This document shows, one piece after another, positions 28,216-59,400 of a stretch of 64,000 nt of DNA; the first letter of the stretch is position 1, and each line of letters begins with the position of its first letter. The notes beneath the pieces are model-generated. The model was not told the origin of the DNA. It saw only the letters and a list, made by a program, of their open reading frames with translations, and did no database searches. This DNA is from an uncultured Verrucomicrobiae bacterium (GTDB lineage: Bacteria; Verrucomicrobiota; Verrucomicrobiia; Chthoniobacterales; JAFAMB01). The DNA is taken from positions 704,001-768,000 of the forward strand of contig CAWEXO010000011.1 of assembly GCA_963813025.1 (NCBI GenBank). The letters are read 5' to 3'. The translations under genes were made by a program, and so were the position numbers.

Positions 28216-29628
28216 GGTAGTGTCCGCTTTTTTGTGTGCGGGTCGATTGGTGCTTTGCTGTTTAACTCCGGGCAAGTTGTTCTGAGGACGTCAGCTCGAG
28301 CCGGCGAGACCGCCCTCCAGGCGGTCGGTCCAGCGCCGGGCGAGCTGTGAGCAACGGGCTTTGGCGTTGTTCAAGTCCTCGGCAACAACTTGCCACTTTT
28401 CTCTTTTCTTTCTCCATCACAGGCCGGCTTCCGTTGCCAGAAAGCGCTCGCCAAATTGGATGGCAAACTGGGTTGCCGCCAACTTCCAGGTGATCGGCGG
28501 ATTTTTCCATTTCTTAGTGATGTTGCGTAAGGCGAGGTAAATCAATTTAGTCGCGGCTTCATCATTGGGGAAATGACCTCTGGTTTTGAGCACCTTACGC
28601 AATTGCATGTGCAAACTCTCAATGGCGTTGGTGGTGTAAATGATCCGGCGAATCTCCACTGGATAAGCAAAGAAAGGAACCACTTGGTCCCACACTCTTC
28701 GCCAGCTCTGGACCACAGCTGGTAGTTTTTTACCCAACTCGCTTGCGGCAAATTCCTCCAACCGTTTGGCAGCTAGCTCCGCCGTCTCGGCGTTGTAAAT
28801 GCGCTTCAGTTCCCGAGCCACGGGCTGATGCTGTTTCCAGTTACAGAAGGATAGTGAGTTGCGCATCAGATGCACAATACAGGTCTGAATTTGGGTCTCG
28901 GGAAAAACCGCGGTAATGGCTTCCGGAAAACCTTTAAGCCCGTCGATGACCGCGATCAAAATATCCTCCACCCCGCGGTGTTGAAGCTCGTTCATGACCG
29001 CTAGCCAGAACTTGGCTCCTTCGGTTTGCTGGATCCACAGGCCCAGCACCTCTTTGGTGCCATCACGCTGGATCGCCAAGGCGAGGTAAACCGCTTTGTT
29101 TTTCACGTTCCTTCGTCGCGGATTTTGACCCGTAGGGCGTCAAAGAAGATCACCGGATACATCTTCTCCAGGGGTCGGTTCTGCCACTCCAGCACGTCCT
29201 CCAGGACCGAATCAGTTACCGTGCTGATCAGATCGGCCGAGACCTCCACCTTGTATTGCTCTTCTAAAAACGCCTTGATCTCCCGCACCGTCATTCGTTG
29301 GGCGTACATGGCAATGATTTTGGAATCGAAGCCACCAAAGCGTCGTTGCCCTTTGCGAATGAACCGCGGCCCTTCTCATAACCCAGGTAATGGGTCATCT
29401 CGGCTCCAAGCACCCGTTCGTACAGGCGCTTGGTAAGTTGCTCCATGATCCCTCCCGGACCGGTCAAATCTTCCGGCCGCTCGTAGCCCTTCATCAGCTC
29501 TTCAATGATCGCCGGATCGATCTCCGGCTTCCTGCTTTGCTTCCCCTGCTCTGCTTGCTCTTTTTTCTTGGTCACTTCCATCTTCTTATCTCAGGTTGTG
29601 ACCCACACACAAAATTTAAGACACCCTC
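28216..29628 (-). mobile_element. IS256 family element (defective)
   Basis: Imperfect 27-bp IRs ggtagtgtccgcttttttgtgtgcggg / cccacacacaaaatttaagacaccctc; no clean target duplication. Confidence 0.8.
28417..29581 (-). pseudogene. IS256 transposase with internal deletion and frameshift
   Basis: Three fragments: LGAEMTHYLGY; YPVIFFDALRVKIR; DGLKGF, QTCIVH, YTTNAIES; the RNG...PRDR segment is missing near 29370. Confidence 0.9.
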
Positions 29629-29745
29629 TCTGGAGCGCGTGGCTGCCGCAGATTCCGGCTCGAACGAGTCTTCGCCGAAGGCTCCTCCTTCGCTAAAGCT
29701 TCGGCGGACACGTCAAATGAATTCTCGCCCTTGTACCTTGCCCCA

Positions 29746-29970
29746 CCAATTTTTTTTCCCTTTTAAAGCCGCCCGCAAGGGCGGAACTCTGGAGGTGAAG
29801 AACTTGGCCGAGGAGGGTGGAAAACTGCCTCGCCCAAAGGTCGGTAGAACCTGTCCGGTAGATTAGTCCACCCTTCCTCGTGCCGCACCTGCATAAGACC
29901 GTACCGTATCTTAGGCCGTTCCAAACAGGGTTGGAACATAAGCCCGTGTTCACAAGGCTCTGTCAGCAGG
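29746..29970 (+). ncRNA. Predicted IS110 bridge RNA (ends approximate)
   Basis: 5' hairpin ccgccc-gcaa-gggcgg; target loop closed by 29810-29821/29867-29879 holds ctcgccc and ccggtag; donor loop closed by cctgc/gcagg holds accgtatct and acaag. Confidence 0.85.
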
Positions 29971-30026
29971 CGCGCGCCCAAGCGCTTCATCAAACAAAGA
30001 ACCAATTCAACTCGAATTCCTGTCTG

Positions 30027-31037
30027 ATGAAAAAACGCTACTGCATGGGTATTGATATGGCAAAAGCAAGCTTTGACTTTTGCCTGCTCTCCAAGAATGG
30101 CACTCGCCTGTGGCGGGGAAAGTTCAGCAATGATGCGACCGGCATTGGAGCATTTTTAGCCCAACTCCAGGCCCGCTCTTGGCCGCTCTCCCAGATCCAC
30201 TTCGCCCTGGAAGCCACCGGGGTCTACGGGAAGAGATTGATCGCCGCTCTGCACCAAGCAGGCTTGGCGGTCAGCGTGCTCAATCCCGCCCAAGTCAAAT
30301 ACTTTGCTTTCTCGGTCCTGCGCCGCACCAAAAATGATCGGGTTGATGCGGCCATCATTGCCCAGTTTTGTCTGGAGCGAAAACCACTGGCCACTCGGCC
30401 GCTGCGCCCCCTTGAGGAAGAATTCAAACTGCTGGTGCGGGAGCGCGAAAGCCGGGTTGGCGAGCTCATCCGGGAACAGAACCGGGTGAAAAAAGACCCT
30501 TACCCAATTGCGCTGCCCGAGCTTATCAGCCAACAGCGTGGCCAACGACTCGCCCAGCTCAAGAAAGAAATCGCTCAGCTGGAGTCGGCCATCTTCGGCT
30601 TAGTCGCGGCTGATCAGGCTTTAAGCCGCCAAAGCCAACTGCTGTGCTCTATTCCCGGCATTGCCCAGCTCACAGCCGCCAAGCTGCTGGCCGAGCTGGC
30701 CGGTAAAGAGTTCCAATCGGCTCGGCAGTTGGCGGCCTATGCTGGGCTGACTCCTTCTGAATTCCGTTCCGGTGTCTCGCTCTACGGCAAAACCACCCTG
30801 TGCAAAATCGGCAACGCTTTCCTGCGCAAAGCACTCTATTTGCCGGCCGCCGTTGCTCGCCGCTGGTGCAAACCCATCCAGCAATGGGCCGCAGGTCTCG
30901 AGTCGCGCAAGCTCCACTCCCTGGCTATCCGCGGTGCCGTCATGCGAAAACTCCTGCACATCGCCTTCGGTGTTCTCGCTCACCAACAACCCTACAATCC
31001 TAACCTGGCCCGCCATTCCTTAAAGCAATGCCCTTGA
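30027..31037 (+). CDS. IS110 family recombinase/transposase
   Basis: DEDD motifs GIDMAK, ALEATG, KNDRVDA; SIPGIA, AYAGLTP...SG, LRKALY. Confidence 0.95.
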   Translation: MKKRYCMGIDMAKASFDFCLLSKNGTRLWRGKFSNDATGIGAFLAQLQARSWPLSQIHFALEATGVYGKRLIAALHQAGLAVSVLNPAQVKYFAFSVLRRTKNDRVDAAIIAQFCLERKPLATRPLRPLEEEFKLLVRERESRVGELIREQNRVKKDPYPIALPELISQQRGQRLAQLKKEIAQLESAIFGLVAADQALSRQSQLLCSIPGIAQLTAAKLLAELAGKEFQSARQLAAYAGLTPSEFRSGVSLYGKTTLCKIGNAFLRKALYLPAAVARRWCKPIQQWAAGLESRKLHSLAIRGAVMRKLLHIAFGVLAHQQPYNPNLARHSLKQCP

Positions 31038-31145
31038 CATCCAAGACCGTATCTACCGGCACAAGGCCATAGATTACGTTGCAAGACAACGTATCACCGC
31101 GACAGAGAAGAACGATTTTTACGAAGCGAGGCCCGGCCTCGTTCG

Positions 31146-31664
31146 CTAGGGAGTTCTCAGCGATTGGAGCCATCGCCGCATCATGTTGGTTTCAGTCCCT
31201 ACGGGGCCGGTATTAGGTCCCCGAGACGCCCGGGAGCCGGTATCAACCAGCCGCTGCGAACCGCTGGCCACGATGCGACCGGATGGATCTCGGAGCACAT
31301 AATCAAACGCTAGCCTGGCGGGGGTTCTAGTTCGAACAACTCTCACCGATTGCGGTCCGGTTGTCCGCCGGCCCGCGAGATCGATATTCGTGAAGCGAAG
31401 GTCAAGCGTATGAGCCGGAAATCGCCTGGCCATCACGGGTAGGAGCGCGCTGGTGACGTTCTGGGTAAAAACCGTCGACGAATGTTGGAAATCGCGATTG
31501 TTGATACGAAAGTCAGTAAATCTTCCTGGATCAACATAATCGATGGTCACCACCGCGGGAGCAGAAGGGGTGCCAGGCGCGGCGGTCCGAGTGGTGGTGG
31601 AGGTGCAACCGAAGTTACTAATGATCAACGCGAACGCGCCTATCGCGACTAATGATAGTTTCAT
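31146..31664 (-). CDS. DUF3016 domain lipoprotein
   Basis: YVDPGRFTDF, LRFTNIDLAG, RLAFDYVLRD; Cys after hydrophobic leader. Confidence 0.7.
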   Translation of the reverse strand: MKLSLVAIGAFALIISNFGCTSTTTRTAAPGTPSAPAVVTIDYVDPGRFTDFRINNRDFQHSSTVFTQNVTSALLPVMARRFPAHTLDLRFTNIDLAGRRTTGPQSVRVVRTRTPARLAFDYVLRDPSGRIVASGSQRLVDTGSRASRGPNTGPVGTETNMMRRWLQSLRTP

Positions 31665-32267
31665 AACACACTGACTATCTTTTGCTAATAATTCGGTTCC
31701 AGTTTGCCTGCCAGCAGTAGCCCACCGCGATCGGGCTAACACGCGGATTGCTGCAACAGGCGCACAAAGAGTCGATCGTTTCACAGAGGGTTGGCCGGCC
31801 AGTCAGCCCGAATAGTTACAGCGTGTGCCCGGCCAAGCAAGAAAATACTGGTATCATCTGCTCACCTTAACTCCGTTTGGCTGAAAGCGCTAAATTACCT
31901 CGGTGACAAAATAGACGATGTCCGATTCTTTTTCGGCATTATCTGCGCCATTGGTTTCTTTGATCTTCACGAAGCCTCTGGACTCATAGAATTCACGGGC
32001 AACCTCATTTCTCTGGAAGGTTCAGGCATTCAGTGGCGAGAACGCAGCGCAACCTCCAAAAGAGCTGTCCCAATCCCACGTCGCTGAACGCCGGGCAGCA
32101 CATACAGCTGATCTATCCAATCTTTTCGATAGGCGACAATGCCGAGCAACATCGCGTCTTCAAACGCACCCCAGACTGCTGCGTAGCCGGCCGGGTAAAA
32201 CCGTTAGTTTCGAAAACGAAAACTTTTCTGGACTCTCTTCGAACGATTCTTCTAGACTCGTTCGAGC

Positions 32268-59233: not shown

Positions 59234-59400
59234 TGTGCCGGTAGGGCGATCCGCCTTGGCGGACGAGCGCCAGGCGAGATCTTGTTTGATGTGTCCGCCA
59301 TAGCCTTGGCGAAGACGGAGCCGTCTTGGGAAGTGGCAACTCCGGCGTCCGGCTCAAACCAGTCTTCGCTAAAGCTCAGATAAATTTTCGCCCTGCCGAC
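59234..59400. repeat. REPIN-like palindrome (GTAGGGCGA family) with nested second REP type
   Basis: ccggtagggcga ... ccggctcaaaccagtcttcgctaaagctcagataaattttcgccctgccg matches the 953-1002 arm reversed; internal gtgtccgccatagc motif also at 63205-63238 and, inverted, at about 29684-29714. Confidence 0.8.

Follow-up and report, generated by a model that had tools for sequence, protein, structure and literature searches.

The closest described system to the one studied here is the insertion sequence IS621. According to PMC11208160, the 5' strand of each loop of its bridge RNA has the same sense as the DNA that it matches, pairing with the bottom strand, and the 3' strand is antisense; the core is included in the matches, and the right donor guide binds discontiguously, with nine nucleotides on seven. 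The same source describes elements of the IS110 group as having long left and short right ends, with the reverse arrangement in IS1111, reports that IS621 inserts into repetitive extragenic palindromic (REP) elements, and already predicts thousands of bridge-RNA orthologues. The catalytic residues of IS621 are given in PMC11208158 as D11, E60, D102, D105 and S241, and PMC12288879 reports insertion into REP elements for ISPpu9 as well. Here we analyse a window of 64,000 nucleotides from an uncultured Verrucomicrobiae bacterium (contig CAWEXO010000011.1, positions 704,001 to 768,000), and within it the stretch 29730-31054, which we conclude, with a probability of about 0.9, is an autonomous IS110-group (IS621-like) insertion sequence with a bridge RNA of its own.

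The element is 1.3 kb long, has the core dinucleotide CT at either end, and consists of a non-coding left end of 295 nt, a gene for a DEDD/Ser recombinase of 336 residues, and a right end of 15 nt. It shows the features by which the IS110 group is recognised: a long left and a short right end, no terminal inverted repeats, and a CT flanking all copies. The sole long reading frame (30027-31037) starts at an ATG, and its MKKRY.. N-terminus is invariant among homologues. The product matches both domains expected of such a protein, PF01548 (DEDD_Tnp_IS110, N-terminal RuvC-like; 9e-32, 110.4 bits, cut-off 29) and PF02371 (Transposase_20, C-terminal Tnp; 7e-22, 78 bits, cut-off 21.3), and it aligns end to end with the transposase of IS621 (8wt6, E 2.4e-46) and with that of ISCro4 (9t56, E 1.3e-44). 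In the alignment to 8wt6, residues D10, E62, D104, D107 and S248-G249 stand opposite D11, E60, D102, D105 and S241-G242 of IS621, and the five catalytic residues are invariant in nine homologues. Against plasmids, tblastn matched the recombinase at 35% identity to E. coli records that carry the annotation 'IS110-like element IS621 family transposase', and a blastn search of the element against E. coli genomes gave no match.

The left end contains two loops, each with a same-sense string on its 5' strand and an antisense string on its 3' strand. The first loop matches the target and the second matches the donor, with the core included in every case save that of the left target guide, which takes in only the first core base. 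The bases to the left of the element read ..AATTCTCGCC, with TCTCGCC at 29723-29729, and the left target guide is identical, as DNA (CTCGCCC), to 29724-29730, that is, to six flank bases plus the core C. In the second loop, the DNA string ACCGTATCT is identical to 31046-31054, and the ACAAG at 29952-29956 is the reverse complement of the CTTGT at 29730-29734, where the element begins CTTGTAC. When the 295-nt left end was mononucleotide-shuffled 200,000 times, the four guide strings turned up at frequencies of 0.034, 0.019, 0.0012 and 0.25, whose product is approximately 2e-7. The AU that follows the right target guide is complementary to donor positions 6-7 (the AT of ACCGTAT). On inspection by eye, the G that follows the right donor guide, at the handshake position of the donor-binding loop, pairs here with target position 7 (C); the L074 lineage, with a G at position 7, lacks this pairing.

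A preliminary description of the window, made from the letters alone, had put forward most of these elements, and a base-for-base reading of 29500-31300 returned all of its strings and coordinates. Its intact recombinase from a distant lineage is borne out by the full-length open frame with all five catalytic residues, the 35% identity to the IS621-family protein, and relatives in Verrucomicrobiota metagenome-assembled genomes (MAGs). Its reconstructed target and guides hold for the four matches, with the amendment that the left target guide reaches no further than the first core base. It had also staked its interpretation on other copies of the element retaining ends and flanks that match the guides. 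They do: the left flank matches in 13 of 13 copies or derivatives (..TCGCC in 12 and ..TCGCT in one), and the right flank starts with ACCGG in all 12 that possess a right end. These copies come from the same genome as the window (G000), a MAG of 4.42 Mb in 16 contigs and 80% complete, which holds seven full-length copies, 99-100% identical and with open frames, and six further copies that are deleted, interrupted or partial.

The 12-mer TCGCCCTACCGG, which joins the left half, one CT and the right half, occurs unoccupied 95 times in the genome, against a chance expectation of about 0.5 occurrences (arithmetic for uniform sequence). One such copy lies within the window, at 59238-59249 (-). The repeat around the empty sites reads ..GGCTCAAACAAGTTCTCGCT..GGCTCGAATAAATTT-TCGCCCTACCGG-CGCAGG.., and it is often found as inverted pairs 115-126 bases apart, a pair folding as one long hairpin of about 130 nt; for the pair at C1:93341-93500 the predicted energy is -98 kcal/mol. 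Because the repeats occur as inverted, hairpin-forming pairs, we take the target to form the outer end of either arm in a REP-like palindromic unit. A natural target in every repeat arm therefore offers many harmless landing sites.

We compared guides with flanks among relatives, which were found in genomes of the same family and order (a match in 12 of 61, G000 included, with none in the sole genome of the same genus), in GTDB contigs (23 loci with the labels Verrucomicrobiota, Chthoniobacterales or uncultured Verrucomicrobiae, together with a few distant ones), and in metagenome contigs (66 loci). In this survey, 94 matches were reduced to 63 distinct insertions, and the right target guide was scored in 50 of them. 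Over the seven nucleotides compared (CT and the five flank bases), 40 of the 50 have no mismatch, four have one, four have two and two have three. There are 17 different right target guides (in target sense, for example, CTACCGG, CTACCGT, CTACCGA, CTACGGG, CTCCGGG, CTTTGTG, CTACAAG and CTCCAGG). When each guide is counted once, mismatches average 0.29, versus 2.38 when shuffled, and none of 10,000 shuffles was as low.

The left target guide shifts its register by one base between lineages, so that a comparison in fixed register is misleading; we therefore measured the exact run ending at the core C in any register, applying the same rule to the shuffles and including rows L048 and L080, whose left ends are mis-called. 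Across 21 distinct guide regions the mean run is 5.4, versus 3.3 when shuffled, and none of 5,000 shuffles was as high. The donor guides change together with the ends of the element. The left donor guide passes from ACCGUAUCU to ACCCUAUCU jointly with the right end in L080, L095, L097, L103 and L107; where the left end is CTTGTAT in place of CTTGTAC (the L027 group, L111, L112, L121 and L128), the right donor guide reads AU..ACAAG in place of GU..ACAAG; and the remaining variants (L086, L087, L102, L082 and L083) are G-U compatible. Across relatives the target loop is thus variable and the donor loop nearly fixed. Because guide and flank covary across relatives, we conclude that the guides are used.

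Two details of the survey deserve mention. A change of the right target guide from ..GGUAG to ..GCUAG is seen in three lineages: L011 (a derivative on contig C9 of G000), relative G015 (L023/L034/L038/L041) and L090. This G-to-C change (CUAGC) yields a C-C mismatch two bases past the core, with flanks that still read CTACC, and the position may be one of tolerated or selected mismatch. In addition, the genomic copy L025 of relative G028 has a degraded left end, ..AACCGTGTGTTAG; L121, a metagenome copy of the G028 lineage, has an intact CT-TGTATCT end and a nine-nucleotide match of the left target guide, TCGCAACCC.

One might suppose that the copies are inactive relics, their bridge RNA a fossil, and that they spread by duplication or by recombination between repeats. 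Several copies are indeed deleted or interrupted, the assembly is a MAG at 80% completeness, and neither expression nor circles were observed, the contigs being fragmentary. Relics, however, would not account readily for seven near-identical copies with open frames and all catalytic residues, for copies at different loci that each occupy precisely a site that the guides match and that CT bounds at either end, or for guides that stay matched to their targets in many diverged lineages. We consider this explanation very unlikely. The sequences indicate instead an autonomous element that is intact and probably recently active in a soil Verrucomicrobiota MAG.

The guides lie within a structured RNA. 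A single-sequence fold of the left end gives a 5' hairpin, a stem-closed loop holding both target strings, and a second such domain (z = -2.8). Among the relatives, 49 distinct left-end sequences align well (alignment A2). RNAalifold, applied to MAFFT alignments of left ends, found the target-binding domain as well as the 5' stem-loop, with nine compensatory pairs; it did not recover the donor loop from these alignments, and the donor-binding stems, placed by hand, covary too. We built a covariance model, R1, on the family structure and used it to realign 55 sequences, distant ones included (alignment A3). This alignment has eight helices, with 96.3% of cells paired and changes on both sides in 39 of 47 pairs. 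None of 500 shuffles was as high, and in controls in which the partners were slid by 1-3 columns, pairing falls to 37-55%. Between them, the fold, RNAalifold and the covarying stems close both guide loops with stems. RNAalifold further proposes a long-range helix, CUUGGC/GCCCAAG, round both binding loops (29803-29808 with 29977-29983; columns 39-44 and 244-250 of its alignment). A single pair of this helix shows compensatory change (C-G to U-A), and the helix is in competition with the local closing stem UGGC/GCCG.

The model R1 was also run on more distant loci. At 15 of 19 of them, whose proteins are 30-45% identical to the recombinase of the window, it matches over its full length directly upstream of the recombinase gene and on the coding strand (E <= 0.03). 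One of these 15 loci is L140, an E. coli plasmid element that bears the annotation 'IS110-like element IS621 family'. The full model aligns to L140:411-594, at 16.3 bits and with E-values (3e-5 for the locus, 7e-4 in a 44-kb search) that are rough by the tool's own statement, and both target guides and both donor guides fall in identical columns. An alignment of this kind had been suggested in the preliminary description as a check, and it places the four guides in register, with a weak score.

According to a second alternative, the left end is an mRNA leader or promoter, or else the start of a 385-residue protein beginning at the GTG at 29880, and the matches are protein-DNA recognition motifs rather than RNA guides. 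The frame does extend upstream to 29880, the database entry P0001 calls a product of 363 residues, and Rfam 15, searched over 29400-31400 at E <= 10, yielded no bridge-RNA family at the left end, returning two chance snoRNA-like matches. Yet the MKKRY.. start at 30027, invariant among homologues, aligns with the start of IS621, and we rejected the extended frame; the compensatory changes in the stems would be needless in a coding or protein-binding region; and one same-sense plus one antisense guide per loop is exactly the arrangement of the solved IS621 complex (as described in PMC11208160 and PMC11208158). This alternative is less probable still than that of inactive relics. Membership of the IS1111/seekRNA branch, with a guide RNA downstream of the gene and long subterminal inverted repeats, was rejected and has a negligible chance of being correct: the same two Pfam domains occur in both branches, but the structured RNA here lies upstream of the gene, in the 295-nt left end, and a right end of 15 nt leaves no room for a guide-bearing structured RNA.

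Several considerations weigh against an autonomous, RNA-guided element. No transcript, circle junction or recombination has been observed, and fragmentary short contigs from sequencing runs showed neither a circle junction nor an empty-site joint (the single joint in those contigs marks a stretch replaced in a relative). The left target guide is short, six plus one nucleotides, and misses the second core base, where the RNA has A and the core T. Ten of the 50 scored insertions have one to three mismatches to the right target guide, and all four scorable copies from relative G015 have two each. The count of 39 among 47 pairs is inflated because A3 was fitted to the structure of the model, and the shuffle counts, taken over sequences that share ancestry and so lack independence, are not probabilities. 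At 16.3 bits, R1 matches L140 weakly. Finally, the right ends in the promoter survey reported below were chosen by a pattern that already required TT[GT]AC.

By homology to IS621, the element would excise as a circle. The joining of right end to left end would place a TTGACA 17 nt upstream of a TACCTT, and so would reconstitute a putative sigma-70-type promoter across the junction. In the family, the 17-nt spacer is found in 19 of 20 distinct end pairs, with boxes that read TTGAC[TACG] and, in 17 of 20, TA[CT]CTT; the ends of L140 have a like geometry (TTGCAG, 17 nt, TATTAT). The junction promoter would drive a bridge RNA of about 210 nt together with the recombinase, which would bind that RNA. 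The first loop would pair with the target TCGCC-CT-ACCGG, its 5' side with the bottom strand and its 3' side with the top strand, and the second loop with the donor junction ACCGTAT-CT-TGTAC, whereupon serine-mediated strand exchange at the CT core would insert the circle. By the same homology, the bridge RNA is expected to be expressed, bound by the recombinase and programmable. The features on which this scheme draws are collected in Table 1.

Table 1. Features of the element and its flanks, in window coordinates.
Feature	Position	Strand	Remarks
Left target half TTCTCGCC	29722..29729	+	in REP-like repeat arm; ..TTYTCGC(C/T) at 13/13 copies or derivatives
Core dinucleotide CT, left copy	29730..29731	+	lone CT at empty sites
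Left non-coding end (295 nt)	29732..30026	+	encodes the bridge RNA
TACCTT, -10 box of promoter rebuilt at the circle junction	29734..29739	+	predicted from sequence
Bridge RNA, extent by covariance model R1	29764..29976	+	229.7 bits; match by construction
5' stem-loop GCCGCCC-GCAA-GGGCGGA	29768..29786	+	5/6 pairs with compensatory change in wider set
Target-binding stem-loop, internal loop	29805..29885	+	helix 2: 14/16 pairs changed on both sides
Left target guide CUCGCCC	29829..29835	+	same sense as left target half + core C, so pairs with bottom strand
Right target guide CCGGUAG	29855..29861	+	reverse complement of CT+ACCGG (31053-31059), so pairs with top strand
AU 3' of right target guide	29862..29863	+	putative counterpart, by place, of handshake guide of IS621 target-binding loop (PMC11208158)
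Donor-binding stem-loop, internal loop	29886..29974	+	helices 5, 6, 8: 15/15 pairs changed on both sides
Left donor guide ACCGUAUCU	29903..29911	+	same sense as right end + CT
Right donor guide GU[UC]ACAAG	29948..29956	+	9 nt discontiguously on 7 donor bases CTTGTAC
Recombinase gene, 336 aa + stop	30027..31037	+	catalytic D10, E62, D104, D107, S248
TTGACA, -35 box of junction promoter	31034..31039	+	overlaps stop codon; predicted from sequence
Right non-coding end (15 nt)	31038..31052	+	terminates in left donor half ACCGTAT (31046-31052)
Core dinucleotide CT, right copy	31053..31054	+	
Right target half ACCGG	31055..31059	+	constant among copies; single-CT empty sites

Besides the intact copies, the genome contains a diverged sub-lineage with four members (C15:123618-124629, C9:218159-219171, C12:154616-155247 and C14:420615-421125), which are 90% identical to the element in the left end and 82% in the right part. 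This sub-lineage is seen only as internal-deletion derivatives, in which the bridge RNA and both ends are kept. The derivatives on C15 and C9 are 99.4% identical and have one common internal deletion, which takes out approximately residues 84-185, D104 and D107 included; the C15 derivative has an open frame of 290 residues that lacks these two catalytic positions. These two derivatives share one deletion and yet occupy different guide-matching sites, and would therefore have moved after the loss of catalysis. Such a pattern would arise if their own bridge RNA acted in cis and the diverged full-length family provided the recombinase in trans. A tentative proposal, to which we give somewhat less than even odds, is that deletion derivatives retaining the bridge RNA are mobile but not autonomous. 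If it is true, the donor loop and the ends, and not the cognate protein, decide which elements are mobilised, and natural 'RNA-only' IS110 miniature inverted-repeat transposable elements (MITEs) exist.

Two of the other altered copies have a different character. The copy at C8:36966-38210, which is 99% identical to the element, has an in-frame deletion of 78 bp within the coiled-coil region. In the copy at C9:67089-69147, approximately 715 bp of the interior are swapped for about 1.45 kb carrying two open frames (123 and 370 residues), which we take, by eye and not from a family-library scan, to resemble an IS3-type orfA/orfB pair. Across the genome the IS110 DEDD domain is matched 39 times, once at C11:492102-492536, and the matches form several score groups with up to ten near-identical copies per group. 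This suggests that several IS110-family lineages share the 4.4-Mb genome.

Directly to the left of the IS110 insertion lies a Mutator/IS256-type transposase (PF00872; 28417-29581, - strand) in pieces of 229, 68 and 96 residues; since it is split over at least three frames, it is probably a pseudogene. The 40 nt of left flank recur identically at the C13:237818 copy. The right-hand neighbour (31146-31784, - strand) encodes a DUF3016 protein of 212 residues (PF11454, 1.5e-18), apparently with a hydrophobic N-terminal stretch, and is unrelated to the insertion sequence.

In the full-text literature, we found no paper joining 'bridge RNA' with 'Verrucomicrobi' and two that join IS110 with 'non-autonomous' and 'bridge RNA', which shows only that the lineage is not discussed by name. 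The element adds a well-documented Verrucomicrobiota bridge recombinase, with its protein, full RNA, donor, natural target of 12-13 bp and 95 landing sites. Together with its relatives it forms a natural series of guides on nearly one scaffold, with at least 17 right and 14-21 left variants. Guide rules and mismatch tolerance could be tested on this set, or an orthogonal recombinase drawn from it. Our understanding of the bridge-RNA system is left unchanged.

It remains to compare the element with the known systems. Its likeness to ISCro4 (9t56), known here by the name of its PDB chain, was judged from the end-to-end protein alignment. With ISPpu9 and ISPpu10 of Pseudomonas putida, it shares the property of being a multicopy IS110-family element in REP-type repeats (PMC12288879; 10.64898/2026.03.19.712850), and a MITE-like derivative, moved by the transposase in trans, has been put forward for ISPpu9. 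The host and the repeat are different, however, and the derivatives in the present genome are internal deletions that retain the bridge RNA, with no separate downstream small-RNA module. With the IS1111/seekRNA elements, it has in common the recombinase domains and RNA-guided targeting; in those elements the right end is long and houses the guide RNA, and the subterminal inverted repeats are long as well (7-17 bp, according to PMC11208160), whereas the right end here has 15 nt.

The agreement with IS621 includes the fold of the recombinase, the catalytic residues, the CT core and the long left and short right ends; the 5' stem-loop followed by target- and donor-binding internal loops, the strand rule and the discontiguous right donor guide; the AU that comes after the right target guide, where IS621 has its handshake guide; the 17-nt spacer of the predicted junction promoter; and a REP-type target. 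The left end of L140 starts with CT followed by TGTATTATCC, its right end finishes with ACAGTATCT, and its RNA reads ..AUCGGGCCU-UGGGUUCUAACCUGU-UGCGUAG-AUUUAUG.., compared with ..CUCGCCCA-AAGGUCGGUAGAACCUGU-CCGGUAG-AUUAGUC.. in the element of the window. The two have the scaffold AACCUGU-[guide]-UAGAUU in common, and their donors are nearly the same (ACCGTAT-CT-TGTAC in the window, ACAGTAT-CT-TGTAT in L140). The resemblance to the donor and scaffold of IS621 that the preliminary description had pointed out is borne out by L140, and the IS621 layout that it had assigned agrees with the descriptions in PMC11208160 and PMC11208158 as regards the protein, the anatomy of the element, the architecture of the RNA and the strand rule that the four guides follow. 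The differences are the 35% identity of the proteins; the host phylum, Verrucomicrobiota, as judged from relatives; the target, TCGCC-CT-ACCGG, with a left target guide that is shorter and lacks the core T; and a predicted RNA of about 210 nt against 177 nt in IS621, possibly with an extra long-range helix. The element is a clean, textbook case of the bridge-RNA system described in 2024, and not a new kind.

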